DNA of 49,208 nt, taken from UHGV virus genome UHGV-0196072. One strand, written 5' to 3'. The notes under the pieces were generated by a model, which was not told the DNA's origin, searched no databases, and worked only from the letters and a program-made list of their open reading frames with translations. Below, in pieces: positions 9,412 through 49,208 of the stretch. The stretch's first letter is position 1, and the number at the start of each line of letters is the position of its first letter. A program made the translations under genes and the position numbers. Origin of the DNA: a virus.

Positions 9412-10294
9412 GGACCGCCCCCTGCATACTGCTGACCAGTCCACCAGCAATGGTTATGATCTCGCTGATTGATGTGCGCTCCAGCCAGAGCTGGTTGATG
9501 TGGGATTTCAGTTTGTTCTGCTGCGACTCCTCCAAATCGGTGGCACCTTCAAGCTGCCCGAATGCCAGATTGACCTCCAGCGGCCATATGCGAGATTCAA
9601 TAACAGGCTCAGCGGCTGGTTTCGCCGCAGGAGGCGGAGCTACATCCCGCGCCGGAGATACCAGCCCAGCTGCGAACTGCGCCAGCGCCATACTTGCACG
9701 CCCTTTTGCTTCCAGCTCCACGCGATCGATATAGCTAAAGTGCTCGCCGCGCCAGGTCTTATCAAATACCGCAATGGCCCCGGCAAAGAAAGCGCTGGTG
9801 GGCTTCTGCTTTTCGTCGGCAGGCACAAACCACGCAGGAAGATCGAATCCAATGCGACCACGAATAAACATGATGTGATCGGCATCTTCCGGCCACCATG
9901 TTTCACTTGTTGCAGACTTCACGAGGTAAATGTAGCGACCGCCCTTTTCACGCTGCTCGGCGGTATAGTTCATGATGTGCGTCATGCCAGTGATGGCTTG
10001 TTTTTCATGGTACTGTGAGCGGCTGTAAGGCGGGTTAGCAAAGGCCGCGCCGCCGAGTTCCACCAGCCGACCAGACCAGTCCTGTGTCAATGCGTTATCT
10101 TCAGCTGTGTACCATGCTGGGCATTTTGCGTTGCTGTCGTCGGCAAACAGGTCCAGCACCAGCGGACCAAACACAGCGTTAATGCCCCAGAACAGCAGAT
10201 CCGGCGTCCGCCATTGATCGCCAACTTCTTTCAAATAATGGGCCTTCTGGTTACGCAATGCGTCTAAGGCCTGGCAATATTGGTTTTTTGTCAC
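9404..10294 (-). CDS. phage Dam-type DNA N6-adenine methyltransferase (GTG start)
   Basis: FANPPYS motif. About 296 aa. The start overlaps the stop of the upstream replication gene (GTGA). Confidence 0.7.
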   Translation of the reverse strand: MTKNQYCQALDALRNQKAHYLKEVGDQWRTPDLLFWGINAVFGPLVLDLFADDSNAKCPAWYTAEDNALTQDWSGRLVELGGAAFANPPYSRSQYHEKQAITGMTHIMNYTAEQREKGGRYIYLVKSATSETWWPEDADHIMFIRGRIGFDLPAWFVPADEKQKPTSAFFAGAIAVFDKTWRGEHFSYIDRVELEAKGRASMALAQFAAGLVSPARDVAPPPAAKPAAEPVIESRIWPLEVNLAFGQLEGATDLEESQQNKLKSHINQLWLERTSISEIITIAGGLVSSMQGAVHA

Positions 10295-17915: not shown

Positions 17916-17961
17916 CATGGGGTGTCGGGGGTCGGAGGTTCAAATCCTCTCGTGCCGACCA
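17916..17961 (+). tRNA. Not a gene: 46-nt 3'-terminal fragment of tRNA-Pro(GGG), proL-like (anticodon-stem 3' side through CCA). This is the phage attP core
   Basis: catggggtgtcgggggtcggaggttcaaatcctctcgtgccgacca matches the 3' part of enterobacterial proL. The upstream sequence is not tRNA. Lies between int and the tail-fibre gene. Confidence 0.7.
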
Positions 17962-17976
17962 AAAACCTTAGAAAAA

Positions 17977-18061: not shown

Positions 18062-19591
18062 CTAGGTGACAGGGCAACCTTCTGAAGTTACTGAATGTAC
18101 GTCTGTAGTTTGAACCAGCTTGTTCAAATCACGCACTTGTTTTGTTAACTCCTGCACTGACGAAACAAGATCAGCAATGATGGCTACATAGTCCACGTTC
18201 ATTACCTGAAACTTTTCCCCATCGATCTCCTGCTCGATGCCGAGGAAAGTATACAGATCGTCAGCTTTCTCAGCCTGCTGGGCGATAAAGCCACGCCTGC
18301 GGCGTGTTTCCCCCTTCATGTTAAACTCGCATACCCCTAGCGCATTAATGCGCCTGGAGGCCCCTTCCTGGGGTTCTGTAAATCCGTCTTTCAGACGAAC
18401 GTCAGAACCGGTAGTCATGACGTCGCCTTTAGGGGTGGAGATTGTCCCACCGGTGTAAAAGAGCCAGGCATCTTTTCTGTCAAAACCGTCCATATACAGT
18501 ACCACCCGGTGGTTGTACCCAACGTATTCTTCAAGGTAGAAACCACCCCACGCTCCGGAGGGGTCACCGTTACCGCCGCGTCCCAGCATTCTGGATCGAA
18601 TACGTCCGCCTGAAACCAACGAACCATCAGCAGGGGAACCAAAGTCTGTTCTGTTGGCCGAAAGGTCGACTCCGCATTGCGCCCACCCTCCAATATCTGC
18701 CATACCACCAACACGAAGATCCCTGTCAACTCGCCAATGACTACCTTGTACACTAATTTGATCGGCGGCAGTGGCCATAATCCGCCCGGTGAAGTCGTCG
18801 GTGCTGTAGTTAAAATGAAAGTCGATGTATGGCGTGCTAAATGACAGCTCAATCGCCTGGGTATACAGCAACCCCTTCGTCGTGTTGTCGATGTCGCCGC
18901 CGGCAGTCAGCGCGCCAGGTAGTGTCGTTCGGTTGTTGGCATCAATAACGAGGATGTCATCAAAGGTGTCTGCCGGTGATACAGTGGTCGCTCTTGAACG
19001 CTGAACCCTAAACGGTGTTCCCGAGCCAACGGCAATTGTCCCGCCTTGCCCCTGTTTTTTGAGCAGAGCCAGATCTGAGTTCTTACCGAGTATAAAACCG
19101 GCATTATCGCTGGTTATAACCTGCGAGCCGTCGAGTTTGTTTCCTCCGGTGAGTTTTGCCAGCGCGTTAAGATCCGAGGCCTTCGCCATCCCGGCTATCG
19201 CCGGCACGGTCACCTGCTTTCCTGTGATCGGGTCAGTCAGGGTGATATTGCCGCTGCCGGTCAGGGCCATCGACCAGCCCTCCACTACACTACGCCAGAA
19301 TGCAAACGCGCTGGCCAGCTGGTTAGCAAACGACGAGGTGCTGGCGGTTTCAGCGGTAATAATGCCGTAACTAGCACCGGAAAATGCGGTGGTGATATTC
19401 CTGGTCAGCGTCAGTTGCGTGTCGCTGTCCACGGATTTGATCGCATACAGGTCAGCACTACCGCTGCGGTAGACCACTAGAATCGACCCGGGCAGTATCC
19501 CCAGCGCCTCCTGTGACCATTTTGTTGTCGCACCTGTCACCCGTGCTTGCGACGCGGCACCCATGACGGTACCGACTTCATACATCGCCAT
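18062..19591 (-). CDS. side tail fibre protein with a C-terminal Peptidase_S74 intramolecular-chaperone autoprocessing domain
   Basis: 509 aa. Conserved S-D-x-R-x-K (SDVRLKDGF) and a C-terminal helical chaperone segment. No separate tfa gene follows. Confidence 0.65.
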   Translation of the reverse strand: MAMYEVGTVMGAASQARVTGATTKWSQEALGILPGSILVVYRSGSADLYAIKSVDSDTQLTLTRNITTAFSGASYGIITAETASTSSFANQLASAFAFWRSVVEGWSMALTGSGNITLTDPITGKQVTVPAIAGMAKASDLNALAKLTGGNKLDGSQVITSDNAGFILGKNSDLALLKKQGQGGTIAVGSGTPFRVQRSRATTVSPADTFDDILVIDANNRTTLPGALTAGGDIDNTTKGLLYTQAIELSFSTPYIDFHFNYSTDDFTGRIMATAADQISVQGSHWRVDRDLRVGGMADIGGWAQCGVDLSANRTDFGSPADGSLVSGGRIRSRMLGRGGNGDPSGAWGGFYLEEYVGYNHRVVLYMDGFDRKDAWLFYTGGTISTPKGDVMTTGSDVRLKDGFTEPQEGASRRINALGVCEFNMKGETRRRRGFIAQQAEKADDLYTFLGIEQEIDGEKFQVMNVDYVAIIADLVSSVQELTKQVRDLNKLVQTTDVHSVTSEGCPVT

Positions 19592-19768: not shown

Positions 19769-22700
19769 TTATTGTCCAAAGGAACCGTTATTGCTTCTGA
19801 ATGCTGTCACAACAATATTACCTACTGTAACTTCACTCTGCTGCGGTCCGTAGCTTGCACCAGTTAACGAGATGCCGATGCGGTTGTTACTTGCTGGGAT
19901 GTTAACAGTGAATGATTGTGGAATATCCACAAGGCCACCAGCTTTATCCCGCATATCAACAACGACACGTCTTTTACTCTGCACCCCATTAATATTGAAT
20001 GTCAGAACTACGTAAAAGTCGCTGCGCTGGTCTGTTACACCGCCACTATAGGAGTTGCATCGTACGGTACAGTTCAGCGTGATTGTCATCGGGTATCCAC
20101 TGTTCTGATACCATGCGTTCATAGTTCCAGAACCTTCACCGCCCTTAACCGTAAATCCGTTGAACGATGCAGAAGTTGCAATATCGCCTATAAAAGATTC
20201 AGCTTGCACCGTTCCCTTGAAAACACCGCTATTCGCCTCAACCCTGCCACGGACGATCACGTTATTGAACTGCGAAGAGCCATCCTTGGCGATACGCCAG
20301 CCTTGCGAGCCATCAACAAAGTTATTCGAGCGGATCTCGTTACCGATCTTCGCGTTCGTAATGGAACCGTCCGCGATTTTGGCAGAGGTCAGGGAACTGT
20401 TTTTGATACGTGCCGTATCGATATACAGCTCATTGCCTTCGGCAACCATCACCGGAACAGCCGTCGCATTATTACGGTTAAACAGCGAGAAGCGGTCAGC
20501 GTAGAGGATCATATCGCTTGTTTCACCATTGCTGCCCAGCGTAATCCCCGCGCCAACATTCTTCCCGTTAACCGTCTCAACCTTCATCGACCACAGCGAA
20601 CTCACCGTACCATTCACATCCGCCACGGTTTTGGCGGTGTTCTGAACGGAAGCGCTGAGATCCCCGACACTGGATGTCAGGGTCGTCTGCTGCGTTGCCA
20701 GCGCCTCCAGTGCCGTTGCATGCGTCTGCTGGGTACTGGTGATACTGGCCACCGATTTAATCGTGTTGTCCAGCGTCGTCTGGTTTTTGATGTTGGCGGC
20801 CGCCTGCGCGTCAATCTGCGACTGAAGCGAGGTATTCAGGCTGGCCTGTGTGCTCTGGCTGTCGCTTAGCGTCTTCGCCATGTTATCGACGCGGGAGTTG
20901 GCATTATCCACTTTCGTGGCCAGTGCCGTCTGCTGCTGCGCCTGGGCGGTGATTTTCCCTTCGGCATCCGTTACGCGAGCCGTCAGACCGCTCACGGCAC
21001 TCGCCGTCGCGTCAGAGGCATCCTGTGCAGCTTTCGCATCGGTAACATCCGTGATGACCAGATCGTCGAGATACAGTGAATAGCCAGGGGTACCGTTGCC
21101 GGTGGCGCCACGGGTGGAGATCCAGACCACCGCGCGTGTTCTGCCCGCCCCGTTGTTACTGGCGATACCCGTAAATTTCACCCATTTATCGCGCGCGCCC
21201 AGAGAGGCTTCGCTGACAGTGACCGCCGCCTGCCAGGCATTTTGCCCGGCAGCATTCTGCGACTGGATACCGACCAGCGTCGTCCACCCGGAGGAGGGCG
21301 CCTGATCCGCCGGCATCATGGCCCAGAACTCAAACCGGAACTTCGCGTCCTCACGGACTGACTGCCAGGTGCCAAGCTGTTTATCGCTGTTGCCGCCGTT
21401 GTTCTCATCCCGTCTCAACTTCAGGCTCTTATCGCCGGTGAATTTCTGAGACGCTACCACAACGGCGGTACCGCTCCCGCCCAGCACCTGGCCATCGCTG
21501 TAGCTTTCAAATGTACCGTCAACCCACGGATTAGCTCCCTGAGTGCGGATGGTATTGATGGTGCTGGTCAGCGACGTGATGCTCTGCGACTGGCTGGTGA
21601 TGGTGTTTTCCACCTGGCTGACGCGACCGGTCAGTGAACTCACCGCGGACGTGTCAGCCTTTTTCCCCAGCTCCGTATTCATCGTGGTCAGGCTGTTCTG
21701 CAGACTGGTGAGCTGCTGCGACTGCGAATCCAGTTTACCCTCAGCAGACGTCATCCGGGTGGTCAACCCGGTGACAGCGCTTTGCTCAGCCTTCTTACTG
21801 ACCGCCGCATTCGTGACGGCCAGATCGCCGCTGAGTTTCGTCAGCTGCTGCGCCTGGGTGGTGATAGCCCCTTCCGCAGCGGTGACGCGGGTATTCATCT
21901 GAGAGATGGCCCCGGCGTTAGCCGCGATATCCTTTTCATCCGTAACATCGAGAACATGGAAATCATCGAAATACATGGCCCCCGCGCTGAGGAAGGTCGT
22001 CAGCTGGAAACTGGCCGTCGTGGTCTTCGTGGCTTTCCAGTCAAACGTTACCAGTTGCCAGCCAGAACTAAACGGTCCGTAGTTTGAGCCGACCAGCGGG
22101 CCAGTGCTGTCAGCCACACGAAACTTCGTGTTACCCGCATCTTTAATCGTGGTCCCCGGGTCCTGCTTCGCCCATACCCCCATGCGGTAGGTACGGCCCT
22201 GCGTGATACTGATTTCCTGTCCGACCAGGTTCGACTGGCCGGCGGACATTTTCAGCGCCTTGTTACCCGAGTGCGGAACCTGTAAATCGGCCACCGTCGC
22301 GGTACTGCTCCAGCCGGTAAAGCCCGCCGCACCGCGCTCAAAACTGCCGTTGACAATGAGGTTGCCCGGCATTTTCCCGCTGGCGTCAATATCCGCTGCC
22401 GTCTGGCTCAGGCTGTTACTCAGTTGCGTCAGAGAATCCCCCTGCGCACTGAGTGTTTTGCCCTGCTCAGTGACCTGGTTCTGCAGGGTGTTCATCGCGC
22501 TTGCGTCCGCTTTTTTGTTCACATTCGCATTCGTCGTGGCCAGATCGCTGCTGAGTTTTGTCAGCGCGCTGTTGGCTGCCGCGATGTCATTCCCCTGCTG
22601 CGTCACCGTGCCCTGCAGCTGCGTCACCGCTGTCGTGTCAGCCTTTTTACTCACCGTATCGTTTGTCGACCGGAGGCTGTTCTCCAGCGAGGTGGTCCGC

Positions 22701-25700
22701 GTGCCGATGCTGCTGAGCGTATCGCCCTGCTGGCTAACCGTGGTGGTCAGTGAATCCACCGCTTTTGCGGTCGCATCTGCGGTTTTCTGCGCACTGTTCG
22801 CCGCCGTCACGTTACGCATATGCCAGTCGGCAGCGTACCAGACAGTGCCGAACGGGCTGCTCTGATTAACCTGCAGGAACGGTCGCAGGAAGTTCGTGTC
22901 TGCCGGCACAGTAAAGCGCCAGGTGGCTCGTTTCCACGCGGTGGTGGTCTTGGTGTTTCCCCCGGACGCTCTCGCCCCAATACCACCAGTAGCAGTGGTG
23001 GCACTACCGATGTAGAAATTAAAGTCAGCGCTGCCGGTACCACACGCTACCAGAGCAGACATTTCGTAAACGTCGCCCGGCGTCACGGCGATGTTGTTGA
23101 TTTTTGGCACATGGTCTCGCCAGGCCAGCCGGACGGCATACCTGAACGGGCAGTCAGCCGGCACACCATCGGCGGTGGTCTCCACCACGTCATAACCCAT
23201 GCGGTCATACGCCGGATCAAATGACGGGTTTGGAATGTAATCATCCCCGGCAGCATTCCCGGCATTCACCGCCGCCGTCAGGCTGACGATGTTGCTGTTG
23301 GCTGCCGTGAGGCCTGCCTCGGTTTTCTCAACCCGGCCAGTCAGCGCGTTAAGCGCCGTCTGATCCGCTTTGGTGTTGACCTTATCGGTGGTGCTGCTCA
23401 AATCGCCCTGCAGCTTCGTGATAGCCTGCCCCTGGGAGGTGATTTTGCCTTCCGCACTGGTGACCCGGCTGGTGAGATCACTCACCGACTGCGCGCTGGC
23501 CTTTTGTGCCACGTTGTTGTTGGTGGTGTTCAGGCTGTTCTGCAGATTCGTGATGCTCTGAGACTGCGCGGTCAGCTGCCCCTCGGCATTCGTCACCCGA
23601 CTGGTGAGGCTGTTAATGGCCGAGGTGTTCGCGGTAATACCGCTGGCTGCATCATCCGGACTCGGTGACCAGTCGGTCATCACGGTCCCGGTTTCCAGCT
23701 GAGGGCGGCAGAGCCAGACTTCTTTGTCGGCAGACGTCGCGCTTTCCAGACGCGCGGCAATCAGCCGTTTGGTGCCACTGGTGGCAGGAATAACCCATTT
23801 CACCCAGTAACGCGCCCATGCGGTGGTCAGTTTCGTGACCGCCTTGCCGTCACCGGCCCCGCCTTTAACGCCCTGGCTGGTTTCCGTGGTGGTGGTGTTC
23901 GACGGGTTATAGAAATAACTCGCCATCTCCTGCCCGTCATAAGCCCCTTTCGCATAGAAGCTGAATACAAATTCCGTACGCCCGGTAACATCCAGCATCT
24001 GTTCATCCAGCTGGATATAACCGGATGCACCTTTCGCCAGCCGGGTGTAGGCCACGCGGTCGCCCAGATACGTCTCTGTGGCGTGGCGGCTGCTCCATCC
24101 CTCCAGTGTGTCCGCATTGCGGATAAGGTTGGTCCCGCCAACGGCCAGGGAGGAAAAGTTGTTTTCCAGGTTCGTCAGCGCGCTGCTTTGCGCGGTCAGA
24201 TCCCTGCCATGCTGTTCAACGGTGTTCTGCAGGCTCTGCAGCGCCGTTGCATCAGCCTTCTTCGCCACATTGCTGTTAGTCGTGTTCAGGCTGTTCTGCA
24301 GGCTGGTCAGGCTGTCTCCCTGCGATTTCAGGCTGCCTTCGGTAGCCGTCACGCGGGTCGTCAGATTCGTCAGCGCGCTGGCATCGGCCTTGCCGCTGAT
24401 ATCCTTACCAAGTTGCGTCACATCCGACTGCAGCTTCGTGATCGCGCTGCCCTGAGACGTAATATTCTTCCCGTTCTGCGTGACTGACGCGGACAGACTG
24501 GAAAGCGCCTGCGCATTCGCATCGGCGGCATCGAGCGCCGCTTTCGCATCGGTCACGTCAGTGATGATCAGATCATCAATCAGGAAGGCGTCACCCAGGC
24601 GAACTTTTGGTGTATTCGGGATGGAGATCCTCACCATTGCCTGTTTCAGTGCGGTTCGGTTGTTGGTCAGATAGCCACTGACTTTTGTCCAGTTGTCCAC
24701 CGACAACTCGGAGACTTTCACGTTCAGGCCAGGCCACGACCAGCCATTGGCTGAATCCTGGAAGGAAAATCCGAGTACCATATAAACGGTCGGATCGGCG
24801 GTCGAGCCAGCCGGCAACTTAACCCACGCCTCCACGTAATAGACCGCGTTATCGCGAACCTGCATGCCTGAAAAGATATGGGTATCGTTATTATCCGTCG
24901 CGTTCGGGTTGTACTCCGTACTGCGCGTAACACGCAGGCTTTTGGTCCCGCTGTGAGCAGCTTCACTGGTGATAACGGCGCGGGCATTACTGAGAACATC
25001 GCCGACGGCATAGGATTCAAAACTGCCGTCCGGCAGTACGTTGGCTCCCCGTGTCGCCTGCTGCTTCAGCGATGTATTCAGGCTGGTCAGGCTGTCGGCC
25101 TGGCTACGGATATCCTTTTCAGTCTGGGTAACCCGGTTGGTCAGTGAACTGACCGCCGACGCATCAGCCTTCTTCGCCACATCGCCTTTGACCCCTTCCA
25201 GCGCGTTATTCAGCGCCGTGATGGATTGCCCCTGTGATGTCAGGGTGTTCCCCTGGTTCGTCACCGTCCCGGTCAGAGACGAAACAGCATCGCTGGTCGC
25301 CTTGATGTTGGTTTCATCGGTGATATCAAAAACCCGGACGGAATCGAGCCAGATTTCACCGTTTGTCGGATGAGAATAAAGTTTGAAGTTCTGCCCGTCC
25401 GCGCCGGCAGCCGTCAATCCGGTTTCCCAGGTGATGGTTTGCCAGTCAGTGGTCAGCGTGACCGTTTTATCCTCATACGTGCTATCCGTCTGGCCAATTT
25501 TGTTCTGGCGACGGATCAGCAGACTCATCGCTCCGGAAACACCTTTGGCCTTCACCACCACCCGGTACTTGCGCTGGCCATTCAGCGGCACCGGCTTGTT
25601 GTTGTTGGAGAAAATTCCTGGGCTGATAGTGGTCGTCCGGTTCAGCCGGACCCCCGCTTTCCCGTCCCCGAAATCGCCAAAGGTCACACCGGCTGGATAC

Positions 25701-28700
25701 TGAATATCCCAGGCAGTGCTGCCCTGCAGAAAATCAAAGTTCGGGATCAGGTTGTCGCCGGCGTTGCGGGTGGCCGTCAGCACATTCGCCAGATTTGTCA
25801 GCTGCTGGCTCTGTGTGGTCAGTTTCCCTTCCGCCTCTGTCACCCGGTTATCGACCGAAGTCAGTGCCGTGGCATCGGCCTTCTTCGACACATTGCTGTT
25901 GGTCGTGTTCAGGCTGTTCTGCAGGTTCGTCAGCTGCTGGCTTTGTGAGGTGATGGCCCCTTCCGCTGTGCTGACCCGGCTCGTCAGTCCGGTAACGGCG
26001 CCGGCGGTGGCATCGATGTCCACCCGGTCGGTAACGTCAGTGACGTAAAAATCATCGAAGTAGCGGCTGCCGCTAATCAGATAGTTGCTCAGCGTCACCG
26101 GCAGGCTGGCTGTCTCCGTCGCTTTCCAGCGACCGGAAACCAGGGTCCAGTTTGTCCCCACCGTGCCGCTGTTGTACGGACGCTCAAAGACCGGCTGGCC
26201 GGCAGAGTTACCGATCCGCAACTTGTTGTTCCCCGCGCCATTATCCGTCGTCGCTCCGGGTTCCTTGACCCACACCCCGATTTCATAGGTTCGCCCCTGA
26301 ACAAACGGGATGTATTGCCCCGGAGACACGCTCCCCGGATCAACCTTCAGCGCCCGCGTCCCGCTGTGAGGAGCGGAAACCTCCACCACACTGGTCGCGG
26401 TTGACCGCCCGGTATAACCATCCAGCCCGCGTTCAAATGAGGGATTCACGACCAGGTTACCCGGTATCTGACCGCTGGCATCGATATCTGCCGCAACTTG
26501 CGAGAGACTGTTCGACAGATTCGTCAGCGAATTGCTCTGGCTCTCCAGCGTTTTACCCTGCTGCGTCACTTTCGTGTCGAGCGTGGCCAGCGCAGTCGCA
26601 TCGGCTTTCTGCGCCAGCGCTTTATCGGTATTCGCCAGATTTCCGGTCAGTTTCGTGATGGCGCTGTTCGCAGCAGTCAGATCGTTGCCCAGCTGTGTGA
26701 CGGTATTGGTCAAATCCTGCACCGCTGTCGCATCAGCCTTTTTGGCCACTGCGGCATTGGTGGTGGCCAGCCCGTTTTCCAGCTGGGTTGTCCGGTTGCC
26801 GGTCGAGGTCAGCAGATTACCCTGTTGCGTCACGGTGGTGGTCAGCGAGTCAACCGCCGCCGCCGTGGCATCCGCAGTATCCTGAACCTTTTGCGCCGCT
26901 GTCACATTTCGCATATGCCAGTCCGTAACGAACCATACGGTGCCATACGGGCTGTTCTGCGAGATCTGCAGGAACGGGCGGATATAACCCCTGTCTACCA
27001 TCGCCTGCGTGACCTTGAAGCGCCAGGTGGTTCTCTGCCAGGTCGCAGAAGGTGATTTTCCGCCCCCCGCCATGAGTGGCGCACCGGTGCTCGTATCTGG
27101 CCGAACGGCGGTGCCAACATACAGATTAAAATTCGCCGTGCCAGCGCCGCAGGCAACCAGTGCGCTGATCTCAATCACATCGTTAAGCGTGGCCGGGAAC
27201 GCGGCAAAGTTAGGATGGTGATCCCGACTGGCAATTCTGGCCGCATAACCATACGGGCAGCCAGGAGGGACCTCCTCAGCCGTCGTGGATACGACGCTAA
27301 ACCCCATCTGGTCGTAAGCCGGGTCAAATGTCGGGTTGGGAATTAAATCTCCGCCTGATGCGTTTCCGGCCCGTACAGCGGATTTCAGCGAGGTAATGTT
27401 GGCGTTAGCAGCCGTCAGCCCGGATTCCGTCTTCTCCACTCGTCCGGTTAGCGAGTTCATCGCCGTCTGATCCGCTTTGCTGGCCACGTTCGCGTCTGTC
27501 TGCGTCAGCGCATTCCGGAGTTGGGTGATGCTCTGCGAATTGCTGACCACATCATTGCCAATCTGGCTGACATTCGAGCTGAGTACGCCGGCTGCGTTTG
27601 CCAGCGCGGAAACCCCGAGACCGGAGTACATCTCAGCAACCTTGTCTGACAGCTTCAGGCCCAGGTTGATATACGCCTGGCCGGTCCACTGATTCACCAG
27701 AAACTCAACGGTGTTCCAGCCGACTTTCAGTTCAAAACTGACGGTATTCCTGCTGGCGTTACCCCAGGCGACCTGAACCCCATTCACAAATATGGCGCCG
27801 GTATCATCAAAAACCCTGGCGCCGGGCGCCAGTGTGATGGTGGTATCTGCGGCCACTTTCACCTGGCAGGAATACAGCGCGATCAGATAGCTGCCGGCGG
27901 ACGTAAAGTCCAGTTTGGCCGCGTCGGCCACCTCATCCACTACCGTTGGTGCCACAGCGCGAACATCGCTGAATGACGGGACTGTCCCGGCGTTAGCCAG
28001 CTGCACCGGATAGATCCGACGGGACCAGCGATTCGGCTGGCCATTGACCAGTTGATTCGACAGGCTGGTGATGCTGTCAGTATTGCTGCGAATATCCCGC
28101 CCGTTTTGCTCTACCTGCTGCGTTAAGGCAGTGACCGCAGCCGCTTCAGCTTTCTTCGCCAGCGCGGAATTTGTCGTGCCCAAATCGCTCGTCAGTTTCG
28201 TGATGGACTGACCCTGGCTGGTTATCCTGTCGCCCTGCTGGGTAACAACAGACTGCAGCCCGCTCAGTGCCTCATTCGTACCAGCCAGGCCCGTTTCCGT
28301 CTGGCCAACCCGGTTAGTGAGCGATGTTAACGCGGCGCCCTGCGATGTCAGCGTGGCGCCCTGTTGCTCAACTTTCTGCGTCAGGGACGTCAGCGCGGCT
28401 GCATCGGCTTTTTTCCCGAGGCTGGTTTCCAGGCCACCGATACGGCTCGCCTGCGCGCTCTGCTCTGTCGTCAGAGAACTCAGTTCACCAGAAACAGCAG
28501 CTTTGTTGTCGTTAAACTGCGTCTGCAGGGACTCTCTGGCCTTAACTTCCGCCGAGATGGCGGTAACGCGCGCGGTTTTTTCCTGGTACAGCAGCCCGGA
28601 GGTGACTTTCTCCAGATCGTTCCCATCATAGGAGCCACGCATCTGCGCCGCCAGCGTGCTGCGTGCCTGCGCTTCGGCGGTCAGCGCGTTACTCAGCGTG

Positions 28701-31700
28701 CTGCGCACATCCTGCAGAGCCGCCGTACTGGCGCCGGGTGCTGGCCGGCCAACGGCGATCCAGTCGAATTCGATAAAGTTGCTGGCATCCTGCTGGTTCG
28801 TCAGGTCCAGGCGAATACGATCAATGTTCCCTGTCCACGGAATATCACGCACCGTCAGGGTTGCCACCCCATCGGCATACTCCGGCTCAGCAACAATGTA
28901 TCGCTTCGTGTTAGTGAAGTTTTCGCCGGCAGACACCCAGCGGATCTCACCCGCCCAGACTGGTTTGCCGGTTTTACGAAAGCGCAGCATGATGAAACGG
29001 TACGCCGCACCATCGACAGCCAGCCCGCCAGGAGAGGTAATGTACGGATCGGTGGCGCTGTCCGCCGGGCGTAACCAGCCATCCTGTGACACACCCGGTA
29101 CGCCGGCGCTGCCGGTCCAGCCCTCGGTCGTCTGATTGTTGAAATGCCAGATAACCTGCGAATCGAACTGGATATTAGCGCCGGCAGCGAGGCTGGACAT
29201 TTCCCGCGCCAGATTTTCATCGGCGGTCTTCATCACCTGAGTCAGGCTCTCGATACTCGCCTCAATCCCCTGCGTTGCCGCCAGCAGTTCATCAGCGGCC
29301 TGTGACGCCTTCGCGTTAACATCGGCAATACGATCCGCGGTCTCCTGCTTCACCGCATTGGTCAGCGTGGTGTTGACCTGAGACAGCGACTGCTTCAGGC
29401 CATTTTCAGCAGTCTTTATCTGCGCATTCAATGCGGCATCGCCGTCGGCCAGCGTTTTGCTGACCCTGGCAATCTCCAGGTCGATGGTGGCGTTGATTTC
29501 CGCAGCCGTATCGGTGACTGACTGTCTTACCTGGGTGATGCTGTCGGTCAGCGACTTGTTCACAGTTGCGATCTGCTTGTTCGCATCTGCGACGGCGGAT
29601 TTTGCCTCCTGAACGCCTTTGTTTGCCTGAGCCAGACCAGAATCGAGAGCCTCATTGACCGAGGTGATCTCATCCGTGATGGTTTTATTCACGGCGGAGA
29701 TCTTCCCGTCAACATCAGCCGTGATGCTTTTCGCCGATGCATCAATATCCTGGCTGACCTGCTTCGCCTGGTCTTCGGCTTCCTTACGCAGAGCTTCAGC
29801 GGTCTGCTCCAGTTCCTGCTGCGTATTGCGGATACCTTCCTGTGTTTCGCTAATGGTGCGCTGCGTTTCCTCCCAGGCAGCCGTATCCTTGATCGCGTCG
29901 GTCAGGTTTTCGTAGTAGTCATCAAAGTTATCGCTGGCCATCCCCTGGACCCAGCCGGTCCACGGGCTTTCATTGCCAAGACGATCCACAAGGCGCGCCC
30001 GGTACCAGAATTCGGCGCCCATACTGAGGCCCATCTGCTGATAGCTTTTCCCCGGATAGGCTACGTCTGATAACGGCATTGGCGCACTGCCGTCCTGGTT
30101 TTTGCTGTACTGCAGTTCCGTGCGCAGCGTATCCCCGGAGCCGGTCGGGAACTCCCAGCTAACCTGGACCCCATGAACCAGCGAACGGGTTGCCAGCGCC
30201 AGCGGTGCCAGCGGCTCGCCGACCTTGCCGGTCAGGGTTTTCTCTTCGGAATACGCCCAGCCGCTCGAGATCTCCGCCGCATTGATCGCACGGACGCGAA
30301 CCAGGTAACGACCGGCATAAATGCCGCTGACCTCAAACGAGGTGGTCGAGCTGCGCGGAACATTAATCCAGTTCCCGTCGTTACGGCGCCACTGCGCCTC
30401 GTAGGCAATAGCGCCGCTGACCGCTGACCAGTTAACCTGCATCGTTTCGACGCTGATCCCCTGATTCACGACCGAGCGGGATGTGATGACAATATCGTCA
30501 GGAGGTGACTGGTTGCCCGCCGGCAATACGCTAACCGGGCGCTGATCGATAATCGCGCCGGTATCGATGCGGGCGAATTTATCCGGGTCATGTGACACGC
30601 CGGTGATCGTGAGGGTGGCATCGCCGTTCTCTTTTACCCCTGTGACCCGGTACTGCTGCAGAAAGAGGTCATTAGATTCTACGGCCCAGACGCATTCCCG
30701 TTCTGGCGTCTCACTGTACGCCGTTGTGACCGTAATCTGCCGGCGTCCGTTAACGGCCTGGATGGTCCGGCTCTGTGAGATCCCGGATGGCAGGTTTAGC
30801 TGGAGGCGGTCGCCAGGTTTGGCATCCACATCACGATCCAGCGTAATCACCCGGCCATTCACCGCGCTGATCCGCCCGCCGTTGACCCGTCCGGCCAGCA
30901 ACTCATCCGCCAGGGCAATGATATAACCGGGTTGAGGAATGCGACCGTCCAGCCCCACATCAAACTCAACGACCCGGTCTTTGTTGTTGGTCAGTATGCC
31001 CCACAGCCCCTTACGGTGGGCTTCGCTCTGGCGCGTACAGCCAATCGCGGTCAGTTCGAGCTGGTTAAAACTGTAGCGGGAAACCAGTTCCGGGATAAAC
31101 GCCGGCTCCATCGCATCAGCATAAGCATTATCCGGATCAGACCAGGAAACCAGGGCGTTGGTGTACCGAACCTGGCTGCTGCTGCTCGAATAACGGGGTT
31201 TGCCGACAATATTGGCGCGCGTATAGGTAAAATCGACATCACGCGGCATATCAGCCTGCACAACAATCTGCTCACCGTTCCAGCAGGTCATGCCCCGGAA
31301 AATGGCGGCAAAGTCTCGCAGCACAGTGTAAGCATCGTTGCGTTCCTGGACATAGACGTTACAGGTATAGCGAGGCTCCATGCCATCACCACCGCGCCCG
31401 TCAGGAACCAGCTGATCGCAATACTGTGCAATCTGGTACAACGTCCATTTGGAGATATTCGCGCTGGTCAGACGATCGCCAAGACCGAAACGATCAGAGA
31501 CAACAATGTCGTAATAAATCCATGCCGGGTTATCAGTCCATGCCCATTTGAAGCCCCCTGTCCATGTGCCGGTATATTCGCGCGTTTCCGGGTTGTAGTT
31601 ATCCGGGACACGGATAACACGCCCACGCGGCTCGCAGGAGATTTGCGGGATGGAACCATTGAACTGGCTGGAGTCGAATTCGATGTACAGCAGCGCGGTG

Positions 31701-32368
31701 TGTGGGTAACGCAGCTTCGCGTCAATAACCTCGGTGTAGCTCTGCAGCGTCATTACGTCGCCGATTTTCACGCTGTTCGCGTCCGGCGATACCTTGCGAA
31801 GACGCAGCGTCCAGGTGCTGCCTGCCTGCGGTAAATCGATGCGGTGGCTACGTTCATACCCGGAAGTAGTTTTGCCGGAGACGGCGGTCTCGAGTACGGT
31901 CTGCCAGGCTCCGCCATCCGTCTGTAAATCGATGGCGTATTTAACGGTATTCCCCACCACATCGCCGTCATCTTCCTGCTTCATCAGGGAGGGCCATTTC
32001 AGGCGGACGCGAACGGCAGAAAGTTGGGTATTCGTAAACGTGTGGGTCCAGGCGGTCTGGCTGGAAACTTCCGTCCCTACCGAAATTTCATTTTCAGTAC
32101 CTGGAATACCCTGAATATAACTTTGTGCCTGCGTCCCAGGTCGGAATTCCCAGGCCACACCACTGAAGTTTTGCGAACCATCGGCATTCTCAAGAGGGGT
32201 ACCGTCGAGATAAATATCTTTCCCGGTTAAACCACCAGCAAACTCCCCCTCACCCAATGCGATAAGAATTTTGGCTTTTGCTACAGACTGTAAATCGTCC
32301 GGCTGTTCCGTGGGCGTACGCTGTTTAGAGCTGCCACCCTTACGCCCTTTAATGATGTTATTTGCCAT
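19769..32368 (-). CDS. J: Giant central tail-fibre / host-specificity protein J (4199 aa). Architecture: lambda-J N-terminal region, about 3000 aa of inserted beta-sandwich (CBM-like) modules separated by fibrous repeats, then a lambda-J-like C-terminal receptor-binding region
   Basis: Single uninterrupted ORF. Residues 1-830 are collinear with lambda J (e.g. KTTSGYERSH, YTGTWTGGFK). Residues 3921-4199 parallel the lambda J C-terminus. Sits between gpI and the side tail fibre. Confidence 0.9.
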   Translation of the reverse strand: MANNIIKGRKGGSSKQRTPTEQPDDLQSVAKAKILIALGEGEFAGGLTGKDIYLDGTPLENADGSQNFSGVAWEFRPGTQAQSYIQGIPGTENEISVGTEVSSQTAWTHTFTNTQLSAVRVRLKWPSLMKQEDDGDVVGNTVKYAIDLQTDGGAWQTVLETAVSGKTTSGYERSHRIDLPQAGSTWTLRLRKVSPDANSVKIGDVMTLQSYTEVIDAKLRYPHTALLYIEFDSSQFNGSIPQISCEPRGRVIRVPDNYNPETREYTGTWTGGFKWAWTDNPAWIYYDIVVSDRFGLGDRLTSANISKWTLYQIAQYCDQLVPDGRGGDGMEPRYTCNVYVQERNDAYTVLRDFAAIFRGMTCWNGEQIVVQADMPRDVDFTYTRANIVGKPRYSSSSSQVRYTNALVSWSDPDNAYADAMEPAFIPELVSRYSFNQLELTAIGCTRQSEAHRKGLWGILTNNKDRVVEFDVGLDGRIPQPGYIIALADELLAGRVNGGRISAVNGRVITLDRDVDAKPGDRLQLNLPSGISQSRTIQAVNGRRQITVTTAYSETPERECVWAVESNDLFLQQYRVTGVKENGDATLTITGVSHDPDKFARIDTGAIIDQRPVSVLPAGNQSPPDDIVITSRSVVNQGISVETMQVNWSAVSGAIAYEAQWRRNDGNWINVPRSSTTSFEVSGIYAGRYLVRVRAINAAEISSGWAYSEEKTLTGKVGEPLAPLALATRSLVHGVQVSWEFPTGSGDTLRTELQYSKNQDGSAPMPLSDVAYPGKSYQQMGLSMGAEFWYRARLVDRLGNESPWTGWVQGMASDNFDDYYENLTDAIKDTAAWEETQRTISETQEGIRNTQQELEQTAEALRKEAEDQAKQVSQDIDASAKSITADVDGKISAVNKTITDEITSVNEALDSGLAQANKGVQEAKSAVADANKQIATVNKSLTDSITQVRQSVTDTAAEINATIDLEIARVSKTLADGDAALNAQIKTAENGLKQSLSQVNTTLTNAVKQETADRIADVNAKASQAADELLAATQGIEASIESLTQVMKTADENLAREMSSLAAGANIQFDSQVIWHFNNQTTEGWTGSAGVPGVSQDGWLRPADSATDPYITSPGGLAVDGAAYRFIMLRFRKTGKPVWAGEIRWVSAGENFTNTKRYIVAEPEYADGVATLTVRDIPWTGNIDRIRLDLTNQQDASNFIEFDWIAVGRPAPGASTAALQDVRSTLSNALTAEAQARSTLAAQMRGSYDGNDLEKVTSGLLYQEKTARVTAISAEVKARESLQTQFNDNKAAVSGELSSLTTEQSAQASRIGGLETSLGKKADAAALTSLTQKVEQQGATLTSQGAALTSLTNRVGQTETGLAGTNEALSGLQSVVTQQGDRITSQGQSITKLTSDLGTTNSALAKKAEAAAVTALTQQVEQNGRDIRSNTDSITSLSNQLVNGQPNRWSRRIYPVQLANAGTVPSFSDVRAVAPTVVDEVADAAKLDFTSAGSYLIALYSCQVKVAADTTITLAPGARVFDDTGAIFVNGVQVAWGNASRNTVSFELKVGWNTVEFLVNQWTGQAYINLGLKLSDKVAEMYSGLGVSALANAAGVLSSNVSQIGNDVVSNSQSITQLRNALTQTDANVASKADQTAMNSLTGRVEKTESGLTAANANITSLKSAVRAGNASGGDLIPNPTFDPAYDQMGFSVVSTTAEEVPPGCPYGYAARIASRDHHPNFAAFPATLNDVIEISALVACGAGTANFNLYVGTAVRPDTSTGAPLMAGGGKSPSATWQRTTWRFKVTQAMVDRGYIRPFLQISQNSPYGTVWFVTDWHMRNVTAAQKVQDTADATAAAVDSLTTTVTQQGNLLTSTGNRTTQLENGLATTNAAVAKKADATAVQDLTNTVTQLGNDLTAANSAITKLTGNLANTDKALAQKADATALATLDTKVTQQGKTLESQSNSLTNLSNSLSQVAADIDASGQIPGNLVVNPSFERGLDGYTGRSTATSVVEVSAPHSGTRALKVDPGSVSPGQYIPFVQGRTYEIGVWVKEPGATTDNGAGNNKLRIGNSAGQPVFERPYNSGTVGTNWTLVSGRWKATETASLPVTLSNYLISGSRYFDDFYVTDVTDRVDIDATAGAVTGLTSRVSTAEGAITSQSQQLTNLQNSLNTTNSNVSKKADATALTSVDNRVTEAEGKLTTQSQQLTNLANVLTATRNAGDNLIPNFDFLQGSTAWDIQYPAGVTFGDFGDGKAGVRLNRTTTISPGIFSNNNKPVPLNGQRKYRVVVKAKGVSGAMSLLIRRQNKIGQTDSTYEDKTVTLTTDWQTITWETGLTAAGADGQNFKLYSHPTNGEIWLDSVRVFDITDETNIKATSDAVSSLTGTVTNQGNTLTSQGQSITALNNALEGVKGDVAKKADASAVSSLTNRVTQTEKDIRSQADSLTSLNTSLKQQATRGANVLPDGSFESYAVGDVLSNARAVITSEAAHSGTKSLRVTRSTEYNPNATDNNDTHIFSGMQVRDNAVYYVEAWVKLPAGSTADPTVYMVLGFSFQDSANGWSWPGLNVKVSELSVDNWTKVSGYLTNNRTALKQAMVRISIPNTPKVRLGDAFLIDDLIITDVTDAKAALDAADANAQALSSLSASVTQNGKNITSQGSAITKLQSDVTQLGKDISGKADASALTNLTTRVTATEGSLKSQGDSLTSLQNSLNTTNSNVAKKADATALQSLQNTVEQHGRDLTAQSSALTNLENNFSSLAVGGTNLIRNADTLEGWSSRHATETYLGDRVAYTRLAKGASGYIQLDEQMLDVTGRTEFVFSFYAKGAYDGQEMASYFYNPSNTTTTETSQGVKGGAGDGKAVTKLTTAWARYWVKWVIPATSGTKRLIAARLESATSADKEVWLCRPQLETGTVMTDWSPSPDDAASGITANTSAINSLTSRVTNAEGQLTAQSQSITNLQNSLNTTNNNVAQKASAQSVSDLTSRVTSAEGKITSQGQAITKLQGDLSSTTDKVNTKADQTALNALTGRVEKTEAGLTAANSNIVSLTAAVNAGNAAGDDYIPNPSFDPAYDRMGYDVVETTADGVPADCPFRYAVRLAWRDHVPKINNIAVTPGDVYEMSALVACGTGSADFNFYIGSATTATGGIGARASGGNTKTTTAWKRATWRFTVPADTNFLRPFLQVNQSSPFGTVWYAADWHMRNVTAANSAQKTADATAKAVDSLTTTVSQQGDTLSSIGTRTTSLENSLRSTNDTVSKKADTTAVTQLQGTVTQQGNDIAAANSALTKLSSDLATTNANVNKKADASAMNTLQNQVTEQGKTLSAQGDSLTQLSNSLSQTAADIDASGKMPGNLIVNGSFERGAAGFTGWSSTATVADLQVPHSGNKALKMSAGQSNLVGQEISITQGRTYRMGVWAKQDPGTTIKDAGNTKFRVADSTGPLVGSNYGPFSSGWQLVTFDWKATKTTTASFQLTTFLSAGAMYFDDFHVLDVTDEKDIAANAGAISQMNTRVTAAEGAITTQAQQLTKLSGDLAVTNAAVSKKAEQSAVTGLTTRMTSAEGKLDSQSQQLTSLQNSLTTMNTELGKKADTSAVSSLTGRVSQVENTITSQSQSITSLTSTINTIRTQGANPWVDGTFESYSDGQVLGGSGTAVVVASQKFTGDKSLKLRRDENNGGNSDKQLGTWQSVREDAKFRFEFWAMMPADQAPSSGWTTLVGIQSQNAAGQNAWQAAVTVSEASLGARDKWVKFTGIASNNGAGRTRAVVWISTRGATGNGTPGYSLYLDDLVITDVTDAKAAQDASDATASAVSGLTARVTDAEGKITAQAQQQTALATKVDNANSRVDNMAKTLSDSQSTQASLNTSLQSQIDAQAAANIKNQTTLDNTIKSVASITSTQQTHATALEALATQQTTLTSSVGDLSASVQNTAKTVADVNGTVSSLWSMKVETVNGKNVGAGITLGSNGETSDMILYADRFSLFNRNNATAVPVMVAEGNELYIDTARIKNSSLTSAKIADGSITNAKIGNEIRSNNFVDGSQGWRIAKDGSSQFNNVIVRGRVEANSGVFKGTVQAESFIGDIATSASFNGFTVKGGEGSGTMNAWYQNSGYPMTITLNCTVRCNSYSGGVTDQRSDFYVVLTFNINGVQSKRRVVVDMRDKAGGLVDIPQSFTVNIPASNNRIGISLTGASYGPQQSEVTVGNIVVTAFRSNNGSFGQ
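21938..23248 (-). repeat. J internal module pair A'-linker-B' (aa 3041-3477), diverged duplicate of the A-B unit at an exact 4101-nt offset
   Basis: Module A' begins DDYIPNPSFDPAYDRMGY. Module B' begins GNLIVNGSFERGAAGFTG. Collinear, at about half identity by eye, through the domains and the intervening fibrous linker. Confidence 0.8.
26024..27349 (-). repeat. J internal module pair A-linker-B (aa 1674-2115), first copy
   Basis: Module A begins GDLIPNPTFDPAYDQMGF. Module B begins GNLVVNPSFERGLDGYTG. Confidence 0.8.
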
Positions 32369-39298: not shown

Positions 39299-40042
39299 TC
39301 AGGAAGCCGTCACGGTGATTTTACAGGTCGCCACAAAATTACCGTCATTGCTCATGACAATAGCGTCGGCGGTACCAGCCGCCACGCCGGTGACAATCAG
39401 AGATTTGCCACTCACGGCCACGGTCGCTTTCGCGCTGTCCGAGGTCGCCGCCCGGAAAGACTGTTCCGATGCGCTGGCAGGCAGGAAGGTGACATTTAGC
39501 GTAGTGGTTGCGCCAACGACCACGCTGGCCGTTGCCTTGTCGAGTTTGATGCCGGTCACTGCAATCGGCTGGTTGCCGCTTTCTTCCGCCAGTTCCGGTT
39601 TCCCGGTATTGGTGATTTTGGCGGTACGGGTGATCACTTCCTTTGCGGGGATGGCTTTACCCAGGCTACTGCACCAGCCTTTGAACACATCCACGGTGCC
39701 ATTCGGGTACTTAATTTTGTACGCCCGTACAGAGCCATCAACGAACCAGGCCACCAGCGACTTTTGCCCTTCTTCACCGGGTTTCCAGGCCAGCGTTAAT
39801 GATGTATCACCTGCCGATTTTGCCCCCTGCGCGGTAGCAGTCCAGTCTGCATCTTCATCATCAAGGTAGGTATCATCGTAGGACTCTGCTGTCATTTCGC
39901 CCGGCGTCAGTTCCTTAATTTTTGCCAGGCGCTGCCAGTCAGCATCGGTAAGTGGATTAGCATAGGGATTACCTGTGCCGGTATACAGCCAGAGTGTGGT
40001 ACCCGCCCCTTTTACCGGAGCAAGTGGATTAGGTGTTGGCAT
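39299..40042 (-). CDS. V: major tail protein V (with a C-terminal Big_2 domain)
   Basis: 247 aa, collinear with lambda gpV. Confidence 0.9.
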
Positions 40043-46347: not shown

Positions 46348-46550
46348 AATCTCACCCCCGCCGGCGGTCGACGTTTTGAGCTCACCAGTAACGACGATTC
46401 CAGCTCCGCAATGTACCGCTTCAGGTCACCCACCGACGTGGCAGTGAACTCCACACGGCGCCCATCTTTTTGCACCGTGGCAACTCGCTTGCCCGTCATC
46501 AGGTCATGCAGCGCCGAGCGGGCTTCCAGTAATTCAGTGGTCGTTGCCAT
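46344..46550 (-). CDS. W: head-tail connector protein W (start at the internal Met [10 protein letters not shown]; the ORF is open to 46727)
   Basis: Nearly identical to lambda gpW ([37 protein letters not shown]). Confidence 0.85.
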
Positions 46551-48444
46551 TAATACCTCCGGACAGCGTTGCCGCCAGTTGTTCAAGAGAAAGAGTGCTC
46601 TGCCCTTCGTTTTTCCTCGATGCTGCCAGAACATCCAGATCCAGTTGCCAGCGCTGAACGGAAACCCGGAATGCCGCATAGGCATACACCAGGCAATCCA
46701 GCGCTTCGTTCCTGCGCCCTTTTGCATCCCACAGCAGTCTGATTTTTCCGTTCACCAGCTTTTCCACCAGCTCTTCGGCCACCAGCTGTTTCGCCTCCAC
46801 TTCAGAAAAAATTTCCGGATCGTCAGGGAAGTGAAAAGCGTAGGGGGTTGCGGTATCTGGCGGAGCGGTGTCTGCCCCCATTCTGGAGTAAAGCATCTCT
46901 TTGGTCGTATCCGTACCGATCTCACACAGATAGGCCCCACTCTGATTGCGCTTTTTAGGCATGGTAATAATCGGTTTGCCGTATACCGATGCCCCTTTAA
47001 TGGGCAGAACGCGGAAGATGCCGTGTTTTTTTGAACGCCGGTATACGATTTCCTGATCAATGCCGCCGGTATCCCAGCAGATGCGGGATATGGTCATCTC
47101 CGTGCCGTCAACGTGGCGGTATTTTCGGTTTATCGCATCATCCACGCGCAGAAGGGTAGCCTCGTCATCATGACGCCCCATGATAATTTGCTTATCCACA
47201 AGAAACGCTTCTTCGCCCGGCGCCCACCCCCAGACGTACATCTCGTAACGGTTACGCTGTGAGTCAATACCTGCGGTCAGGTACACCACCCGCTCAGGGA
47301 CAGACGCGGCATAATGCATGACCTTGTCCATCAGCAGTTCGTGGTTCAGTTTTTCCGCCACTGCCTCTTCGAACGTCTCACCAAGCGTCGTATTAACAAA
47401 GGTTTTCACACCGTTTGGATCTTTCAGCGCATCCAGCCAGTCATAGACAATCTGCACCCAGGTGGTAAACGGGCTGTAGGCTGTCCAGATGTGAAAGGTG
47501 ATCGTACGGGGCGAGGCGACTTCATTGCCGTCCGGACTAAAAAAAGTCAGACCGTCGCGGGTCCACAATCCCGTGTTATCACAAATCCAGCGCCCGGCAG
47601 TCTGGTCAAGTTCAGACTGCCGGATCACACATCCGTTATGCTCACACAGGTAATACGCCGTTTCCGGCTGGTCTTTTTCCCATTTGAGACCAAACGACGT
47701 CGAGTTGTCGCCAAATTTAAGATACTGCTCTTCACCACAGTGCGGGCAAGGAACATAGAACCGCATGAAGTGCGCCGACTCATTCGCTGCCTTTTCTATC
47801 TGGCAGGAACCTTTAATTTTGGGTGTTGAGCCGCGAATGGATTTGGGCCAGACAGAGCCTTCAATACGCTTGTCGCCCAGCAGCGTGGGTGAGCCTTCCT
47901 TTTCCACATCCGGTTCAAACGAGGAGAGTTCGTCATAACAGACCACATCGACAGATTTTTCACGATAGTTTTTGGCAGCTGCGCCACCAAGACACCAGAA
48001 GCCCACGCCTGAAGAGAATCGCTTCAGGGTGAGCGTGTTATCCCTGTGTTTACGCCCCAGCCAGGGGGAAAGCGCTTTCAGACAGGCAACATCCCGGAGA
48101 GTGGGCTCCACGTGAGATTTCATAAAATCTTCGGCAGCGGAATCCGTTGGCTGAAACAGCAGGCTGTTTCGGGATTTGTGCTCAATAAAATACCCTTCCA
48201 CCCCTAGCAACATTTTGGTGTAGCCAACGCGGGCGGACTTTATCAGGTTGATAGTGCGGATCAAATCGCTTCCCATCGCATTCATGATACCGACCTGGAA
48301 TGGCAGGGTGACCCAGTCTCCGGCGCCGTAAGATGACTCTTTCGGCAAAAAATAGTACTTGTCAGCCCACTCCACCGCCGTCATCGGCAGCGGTCGGATA
48401 AGCGGTCTCAGCCCCTCCCGGACTGCCCGCATCATATTATTCAT
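46534..48444 (-). CDS. A: terminase large subunit (gpA-like)
   Basis: Collinear with lambda gpA ([23 protein letters not shown]-terminal ALDC.VYA). Start at the Met aligned to lambda MNISNSQVNRL. The ORF is open to 48492. Confidence 0.95.
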
Positions 48445-48943
48445 CTGTACTTCGGATAAAATCATCCATCCACCCCGGTAATTTCTCATCAACGCGGGCG
48501 CAGGCGTTTGCCCCCTTCGCCACCAGTGTTTTCAGGTGATCGATCTGACGTGGGGACAGCTCCGGAAATTGCCGCTGCATGGCCAGTGGTATGCCATCAA
48601 GCGTACTGGATAGCTCCATCGCTACCCGGCTTAGCGCAAAGGTACAAAATGCCGCATCGATCAACTTACCCTCAGTAACCCGGTTCTTTAGCCGCTGTGC
48701 GATGGCCTGTTCTTCCGTCAGGTCAACCCGGGCCTGAAGTAACTTTTCCTCAAGATCGTCTTCACCCTCTGAAGATTTCTGGTTTTGTTGTCGTCTCTCG
48801 CGATCTATCTCCAGAACGGTTTTAACGTCATAAAAAACCTCTCTCCCCCGGCGCTCAACAGGAGGGACACCCCATTTATCAAATGCCTGAACTGAGATAC
48901 CTATGGAGGAGGCCATATCACTTTTATTCAACAAAAAGGCCAT
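48437..48943 (-). CDS. Nu1: terminase small subunit (Nu1-like)
   Basis: Matches lambda Nu1 (AFCTF.LSR.A.E..S.LDG.PL..QR.FPEL). ATG at 48943 with a GGAGGGG RBS. The ORF is open to a GTG at 48961. Confidence 0.85.
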   Translation of the reverse strand: MAFLLNKSDMASSIGISVQAFDKWGVPPVERRGREVFYDVKTVLEIDRERRQQNQKSSEGEDDLEEKLLQARVDLTEEQAIAQRLKNRVTEGKLIDAAFCTFALSRVAMELSSTLDGIPLAMQRQFPELSPRQIDHLKTLVAKGANACARVDEKLPGWMDDFIRSTDE

Positions 48944-49160
48944 CACCCCTCCATAAGCCACCGGCGAAAAAGCAATACAACAACCGCCTGTTTTTGCTAA
49001 ACCCGATGATTTTACTAACCTTTCTCACAGGGAAAGCATCAAAAAACATCATCAGGTTGTTGTATTTATTTCTCTTTTTTCTTACTTATCAATGATGTAG
49101 GGCAAACTATAAAACAACAACCACCCCCTTAAAAAAACTCATAAGTAGCGAAATCCTGCG
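48944..49160 (-). promoter_or_regulatory. cosB-like terminase-binding region between cosN and Nu1
   Basis: AT-rich. Immediately 3' of cosN the minus strand reads CGCAGGATTTCGCTACTTATGA, against lambda CGCGGGTTTTCGCTATTTATGA. Confidence 0.55.
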
Positions 49161-49172
49161 AGGTCGCCGCCC
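49161..49172 (-). other. cosN cohesive-end sequence GGGCGGCGACCT (minus strand), identical to lambda
   Basis: Plus strand aggtcgccgccc. The minus-strand flanks match lambda on both sides: (ACG|GGGCGGCGACCTCGC) and cosQ-like TCGGGTCCTTTCCGG. Confidence 0.8.
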
Positions 49173-49208
49173 CGTAATCACTCGAACTCCCGGAAAGGAC
49201 CCGAAACG
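49173..49208 (-). other. cosQ-like right-end sequence (last about 36 bp of the mature chromosome)
   Basis: Minus strand cgtttcgggtcctttccgggagttcgagtgattacg, against the lambda right end ACGGGTCCTTTCCGGTGATCCGACAGGTTACG. Confidence 0.6.

Follow-up and report, generated by a model that had tools for sequence, protein, structure and literature searches.

Lambda, N15, phage 21, Gifsy-1 and the Monarch group described by the Feiss laboratory are the cos systems with which the locus reported here is most readily compared. The 7-bp cosQ element is highly conserved (PMC4669245), the I2 stretch is located at about bp 18-50 (PMC4856287) and the spacing between cosN and R3 is critical for correct nicking (PMC9026076). 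In N15, R3 reads GAGGTTGTTGTT (GAGGTT-GTTGTT) and occupies bp 48-59, with bp 54-59 being the most important (PMC4669245). The Monarch group carries the N15 R sequence and recognition helix within a complex cosB of the lambda style (PMC4669245). Cross-packaging has been described in one direction; lambda DNA can be packaged by an N15-specific terminase, whereas N15-specific DNA is not packaged by the lambda or phage 21 terminases (PMC4669245). The phage 21 record (M81255.1) carries annotated binding sites that translate into virion coordinates 50-65 for R3, 72-86 for I1, 107-122 for R2 and 150-165 for R1, and the label 'R4' stands at the cosQ spot in its annotation.

Here we analyse a stretch of 49,208 nucleotides, referred to as the window, one end of which falls within a cos region. 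It is highly probable that this end represents a complete cos of the lambda type, and that the 49,208 bases constitute the whole genome of a temperate, lambda-like siphovirus infecting Klebsiella-type enterobacteria, equipped with a three-box cosB of the N15/Monarch kind. Virion positions are related to the window such that virion position x equals window base 49173-x. The elements of the cos region and the two terminase genes beside it are as follows.

46534..48465, minus strand: large terminase gene (TerL, 643 aa; Pfam GpA_ATPase 183.5 bits, GpA_nuclease 227 bits)
48437..48943, minus strand: small terminase gene (TerS, 168 aa; Pfam Phage_Nu1 80.3 bits against a cut-off of 30; PHROG 57)
48974..48985, minus strand: R1 box GGTTGTTGTATT, virion bp 188-199 (R-box match)
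49055..49066, plus strand: R2 box GGTTGTTGTATT, virion bp 107-118, inverted relative to R3 and R1 (R-box match; phage 21 R2 at bp 107-122)
49087..49099, plus strand: IHF-like site I1 TATCAATGATGTA, virion bp 74-86, between R3 and R2 (one mismatch to WATCAANNNNTTR)
49111..49122, minus strand: R3 box GGTTGTTGTTTT, virion bp 51-62, predicted critical TerS binding site (matches N15 R3; position as for phage 21 R3)
49123..49155, minus strand: I2-like spacer, virion bp 18-50, with a T7 tract at bp 36-42 (lambda match; kept in 19 Monarch-type cos regions)
49159..49174: cosN including the flanking CG dinucleotides
49161..49172, minus strand: cosN cohesive end GGGCGGCGACCT, virion bp 1-12 (identical to lambda)
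49196..49202, minus strand: cosQ heptamer GGGTCCT, the packaging-termination signal, virion -30..-24 (assigned on sequence and on its 23-nt spacing to the nick)
49208..49173, minus strand: right-end sequence, 36 bases, ahead of GGGCGGCGACCT
1..69, minus strand: rest of the cos intergenic stretch, 69 nt, continuing from 49208 on the late strand (exact in seven contigs)

The cohesive end, cosQ and the terminase genes

At the window end the minus strand reads cgtttcGGGTCCTttccgggagttcgagtgattacg followed by GGGCGGCGACCTcgcaggatttcgctacttatga. An earlier note on this DNA had described the cohesive end as identical to that of lambda, and alignment to the lambda cos region bears this out; the bases that it quoted are present, and the 12-mer GGGCGGCGACCT on the minus strand at 49172..49161 agrees with the ends of NC_001416 at 12 of 12 bases. 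The flanks of cosN, TTACG on one side and CGC on the other, are likewise the same as in lambda, and the identity including the flanks runs over 20 bp. On the right-hand side of the nick 31 of 34 bases match lambda through I2, including 22 of the first 24, and on the left-hand side the agreement amounts to 27 of 36. By homology with lambda, the nicks are predicted between 49173 and 49172 on the minus strand and between 49160 and 49161 on the plus strand, which would generate physical 5' overhangs of 12 nt at cosN. Phage 21 shares both cosN and cosQ. The cohesive end of N15, in contrast, departs from that of lambda at bp 9 and 12, and that of Gifsy-1 (GGGCGGCAGCGT) departs at bp 8, 9 and 11.

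The cosQ heptamer GGGTCCT and its 23-nt spacing to the nick are unchanged in lambda, N15, Gifsy-1 and phage 21. The composite GGGTCCT-N23-GGGCGGCGACCT yields a single match in the window even when three mismatches are allowed, and since shuffled sequences lead to an expectation of 0.01, chance is excluded as an explanation. The 12-mer on its own has a second exact copy on the minus strand at 39442..39453, which together with two further nucleotides reads GGGCGGCGACCTCG (39440..39453, minus strand) and is located within a V-like tail-tube gene. We do not regard this copy as a second cut site, because it resides inside a coding sequence and has neither cosQ nor R boxes nearby; it is most likely a chance or coding coincidence.

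Adjacent to cos the window encodes a Nu1-type TerS and a gpA-type TerL, both of which pass the Pfam cut-offs, and searches of the two sequences against solved structures returned no matches. The start codon of TerS is taken to be the ATG at 48943, which is used by the gene callers and aligns with N15 gp1. The proposal of the earlier note that cos sits about 210 bp upstream of Nu1 holds with respect to the adjacency and needs correcting with respect to the distance, as this ATG corresponds to virion base 230. The alternative start in a mechanical list of open reading frames, a GTG at 48961, corresponds to virion base 212, and Nu1 of lambda starts at base 191. TerL is 83.5% identical to gpA of the Salmonella phage Gifsy-1 and 64.6% identical to gpA of lambda, and Gifsy-1 also provides the best match in the phage collection over the terminase region (79.6% at the nucleotide level). 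Gifsy-1 shares the cos architecture with the phage described here; it differs in its R boxes and in its TerS, which is 34.5% identical.

The exact cos of lambda was also encountered in assemblies of unrelated taxa, including Oceanobacillus, Neobacillus, Shewanella, Leeuwenhoekiella, Raphidiopsis and Alicyclobacillus (loci L020, L021, L025, L039, L040, L045, L050, L051 and L053). The Shewanella locus is a contig of 48,542 nt with about 1x coverage, and some of the loci in this group are joined, after the start of Nu1, to what we take to be loxP or vector sequence. The occurrence of lambda cos in these taxa looks like spike-in or cosmid/fosmid-vector contamination.

The cosB region and packaging specificity

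The R-box repeat GGTTGTTGTWTT, with at most one mismatch allowed, matches the whole 49-kb window three times, and all three matches are confined to 150 bp between cosN and TerS, where R3, R2 and R1 follow one another in direct, inverted and direct orientation. Shuffling leads to an expectation of 0.43 matches, and none of 100 shuffles reached three. No further R box with at most one mismatch, including an rR2 inside the TerS gene, was found anywhere in the window. The putative IHF site I1 is the sole match to WATCAANNNNTTR with at most one mismatch in virion bp 1-240, and the I1 region of lambda scores likewise at bp 79-91 on the same strand. The positions of R3, I1 and R2 agree within 1-2 bp with the annotated sites of phage 21 and R1 alone is displaced, lying 38 bp farther from cosN than the R1 of either lambda or phage 21. 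In contrast to this positional agreement, the R boxes of phage 21 are of the GTGTCGGTAC type and its packaging specificity is a different one.

We aligned the cos regions of 19 distinct relatives with the same box type, drawn from E. albertii, Escherichia and Klebsiella-type chromosomes and from IMG/VR. The I2 block, the R boxes and the TTGATAA.TAA core of I1, which is invariant in all 19, remain constant while the spacers between them vary. As these loci were chosen on cosQ, cosN and the R boxes, the conservation of the motifs themselves is partly forced, and the independent evidence consists of their positions and of the blocks on which no selection was made. Searched against a phage collection of 50,697 records, the stretch from R3 to R1 found no match, and the matches of the region were restricted to the cosQ-cosN-I2 piece and the 5' end of TerS. 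In this analysis the cosB type was otherwise encountered only in prophages and IMG/VR contigs, and exact and near searches for the cos of this phage returned none from IMG/VR, the phage collection, PLSDB plasmids or E. coli genomes. A scan of the cos intergenic stretch for promoter-like and terminator-like sites found none, and the arrangement is compatible with late transcription that would read across cos, as in lambda.

The earlier note had announced cosQ and cosB flanks beside a lambda cosN. This stands for cosQ, in both sequence and spacing; for cosB it stands for the architecture and fails for the sequence, which is not that of lambda. What the phage shares with lambda is the cohesive end with its CG flanks, cosQ with its spacing, the order of R3, putative IHF site, inverted R2 and R1, a terminase of the Nu1/gpA type and the layout of the genome. 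What it shares with N15 is cosQ, the R3 sequence GGTTGTTGTT (bp 50-59 in N15 and 51-60 here) and the N-terminus of TerS. Across its N-terminal 45 residues TerS is 80% identical to N15 gp1 and 36% identical to lambda Nu1, and its recognition helix (residues 15-26, GISVQAFDKWGV) is exactly that of N15 and differs from the helix of lambda Nu1, RTIQNWQE. N15 itself differs in having a simple cosB, composed of one R3 and a remote rR2 inside gene 1, compared to three boxes and no rR2 in the present phage. The combination corresponds to that of the Monarch group, to which it can be likened by description (PMC4669245); the shared traits are a complex cosB with the order R3, putative I1, R2 and R1 and a TerS gene lacking rR2, and the distinguishing traits of our phage are its Klebsiella-type hosts and a TerL that is closest to Gifsy-1. 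We infer that the packaging specificity is that of the N15/Monarch group, operating through a complex three-box cosB of the Monarch type, and not that of lambda. Because the N15/Monarch type extends to both the R sequences and the recognition helix of TerS, packaging at this cos would probably not be started by the lambda terminase.

The extent of the likeness to lambda invites the alternative that cosB, too, is lambda's and confers lambda packaging specificity, so that the lambda terminase and the present phage would package each other's DNA. [quoted passage not shown] We nevertheless consider this alternative very unlikely. The lambda R box, CGTTTCC or GGAAACG, is absent from virion bp 1-260, where the three boxes read GGTTGTTGT as opposed to the CGTTTCC type of lambda (CGTTTCCNTTCT); the DNA-binding end of TerS sides with N15 gp1 and not with lambda Nu1; and the terminases of lambda and phage 21 fail on N15-specific DNA (PMC4669245). 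N15/Monarch specificity remains the preferred reading of this cosB.

A different arrangement was noticed in eight IMG/VR viral contigs (L071, L099, L101, L135, L155, L164, L167 and L177), which carry two convergent lambda-type cos sites that are 550-940 bp apart. In L071 (4162..4757) a cosB of the Monarch/N15 type with three copies of GGTTGTTGT faces one of the ATGTCCGG type, and the two cosB types are hence different; in L177 the cosB that belongs to the minus-strand cos is of the GTCGG type. The neighbours of the pair in L071 encode a primase, an SSB, a major head protein, a decoration protein and pieces of portal and protease, and include no terminase. Known Rpp-type PICIs have been described with a single, simple cosB. 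A contig with two cos sites could represent a satellite that is packageable by helpers of two specificities.

Genome ends, integration and host

The window is a complete, circularly permuted and non-integrated phage genome; it is given in reverse-complement form, and its point of opening lies 36 bp to the right of cosN. Both the circular permutation and the point of opening had been put forward in the earlier note, and both are upheld: the ends are contiguous in chromosomal prophages, alignments cross the join and attP is intact, and the 36 right-end bases are found at 49208..49173. Joining base 49208 to base 1 rebuilds an intergenic stretch of 334 nt, composed of 69 nt before base 1 and 265 nt after 49208, and the joined 334 nt are present, exact and contiguous, in seven distinct chromosomal prophage contigs. 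A protein look-up in public assemblies revealed that a 142-aa open reading frame (70..498) and the TerS gene are neighbours 334 nt apart in many chromosomes of 5.2-5.6 Mb. Single alignments of 12.4-12.5 kb with 98.4-99.8% identity run across the join, with no base lost or duplicated. The window has no terminal repeat; over lengths of 8-400 nt, none of its prefixes is the same as the corresponding suffix. The likeness to both lambda and N15 also crosses the join, which reads GATAACTGTTAT followed by CGTTTCGGGTCC here compared to ATAACTATTATCGTTTACGGGTCC in N15.

The lambda-like gene set is complete and includes portal, protease, capsid E, tape measure, J, integrase, S24 repressor, Q, holin, lysozyme and Rz, and the window length of 49,208 bp is near the 48,502 bp of lambda. 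A boundary as close as 36 bp to cosN would be expected for about 0.15% of random openings, which makes it probable that the offset has to do with the real ends. That such an opening is unlikely to be arbitrary, and that the break falls inside a conserved palindrome, speaks for an alternative in which the window ends are themselves the physical ends and the cut is made at the junction of 49208 with 1, which is six bases upstream of cosQ. We judge this to be highly improbable, in view of a TerL with 64.6% identity to lambda gpA and a cosN that is identical to lambda with its flanks over 20 bp; in addition, the spacing from cosN to R3, which is critical for nicking (PMC9026076), is kept within 1 bp, and many relatives that lack the palindrome keep cosQ and cosN. 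The physical ends are predicted to lie at cosN, the window boundary being an opening of the permuted genome.

The palindrome itself, GATAACTGTTATC, spans 13 bp and lies 5 nt upstream of cosQ on the minus strand, made up of window bases 1..12 and 49208 and cut by the boundary into GATAACTGTTAT and a C. Compared with the Fur-box consensus GATAATGATAATCATTATC, it agrees at 14 of 19 positions, and the lambda sequence in the same place, GATAATCATTATC (locus L002, about 1955..1967), which stands 7 nt ahead of cosQ there, agrees at 16 of 19. The palindrome was present in 54 of 79 distinct upstream segments of lambda-type cos sites, and a Fur-box score of at least 14 of 19 was reached by one in 2000 random 45-mers of the window. 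Among the papers searched, none names both 'Fur box' and cosQ. That Fur or some other dimeric factor of the host binds the palindrome, which would thereby be a hitherto undescribed element next to cos, is a speculative and rather unlikely proposition. If it were true, the element would link late read-through transcription, or events at the right chromosome end, to the state of the host.

Mapping of the chromosomal junctions located the attachment site in the window.

17916..17966, plus strand: attP core, 51 bp, comprising the 3' 46 nt of tRNA-Pro(GGG) and 5 further nt

On the side of the integrase gene (16592..17779) the chromosomal copies are identical to the window until 17966 and then continue into host genes for an AI-2E transporter, ecotin and mqo. 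On the side of the tail-fibre gene (18062..19591) the identity extends down to 17916 and is followed by the 5' part of tRNA-Pro(GGG) and by yejM/yejL/yejK-like genes. The integration site is accordingly located between yejM-like and ecotin/mqo-like host genes, and the tRNA is rebuilt at the tail-fibre end. ARAGORN identifies tRNA-Pro(ggg) at the chromosomal junction and finds no tRNA in the window, as the tRNA gene is represented in attP by its 3' part alone. The 51-bp core is whole in the window and split into two junctions in the chromosomes, which shows that the genome is not in its integrated form. One of the chromosomes that bear the prophage, CP021955.1, belongs to Klebsiella pneumoniae AR_0107, and Klebsiella phage records match the tail and J region at 92-96% identity.

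Chromosomes of 5.2-5.6 Mb commonly carry near-identical prophages, and the window could on this account be taken for a piece of bacterial chromosome that holds an integrated or defective prophage, the cos-like end being a remnant beside host DNA. This is scarcely credible, however, because cos lies in the middle of the chromosomal prophages and their ends are att junctions at tRNA-Pro(GGG), whereas attP at 17916..17966 is intact here, the window ends abut exactly and the window contains no host genes. A linear plasmid prophage in the manner of N15, suggested by the N15-type TerS and cosB and specifically by the identity of the recognition helix and R-box sequence, is next to impossible for a phage with a tyrosine integrase, an attP overlapping tRNA-Pro, integrated chromosomal copies, no match to a protelomerase or partition gene among the open reading frames scanned, and a tripartite cosB without rR2 in the TerS gene, which is the Monarch arrangement and not the simple cosB of N15. 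A headful (pac) phage was likewise rejected on this body of evidence.

Several other features of the gene content deserve mention. The position of lambda J is occupied by an open reading frame of 4199 aa (19769..32368, minus strand) with FNIII-A_GpJ at residues 91-217 and Phage_Tail_Tip at residues 3908-4049, and the approximately 3,700 residues between these two domains have no Pfam match. J of lambda has 1132 aa. The chromosomal prophages encode a 4199-aa product of equal length with the same two Pfam domains. A HicA/HicB toxin-antitoxin pair is located on the opposite strand between a late-region methyltransferase and the holin, and the genome contains three DNA methyltransferase genes, of the N6_N4, C-5 cytosine and Dam types. 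The coordinates of the HicA/HicB and methyltransferase region are 3621..4286 (plus strand), 4322..5371 (minus strand), 7684..9450 (minus strand) and 9404..10294 (minus strand).

A packaging model and its implications

The homology with lambda, phage 21 and N15 allows a packaging mechanism to be proposed. [quoted passage not shown] This arrangement would anchor the gpA-type TerL on cosN, where the enzyme would introduce the two predicted nicks 12 bp apart and thereby produce the 5' overhangs GGGCGGCGACCT and AGGTCGCCGCCC. Packaging would then start at 49172 and run in descending coordinates, in the direction in which the terminase and head genes lie, continue through base 1 and 49208, and stop at the next cos, with cosQ GGGTCCT being needed for the second (bottom-strand) nick.

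Judged from its sequence, the phage is a mosaic in which a cosN identical to that of lambda is combined with an N15-type TerS head and a TerL nearest to that of Gifsy-1. The cos site belongs to a well-described kind, and the result is in this respect an ordinary one. The orientation and the predicted ends of the genome can be assigned, with virion base 1 corresponding to window base 49172 on the minus strand, and the record is complete. The phage adds an example from Klebsiella-type hosts to the complex cosB of the Monarch type, and its cos is otherwise a textbook case of the lambda kind. Its predicted specificity class in turn predicts which helper phages, cosmids and satellites would be open to DNA exchange with it.
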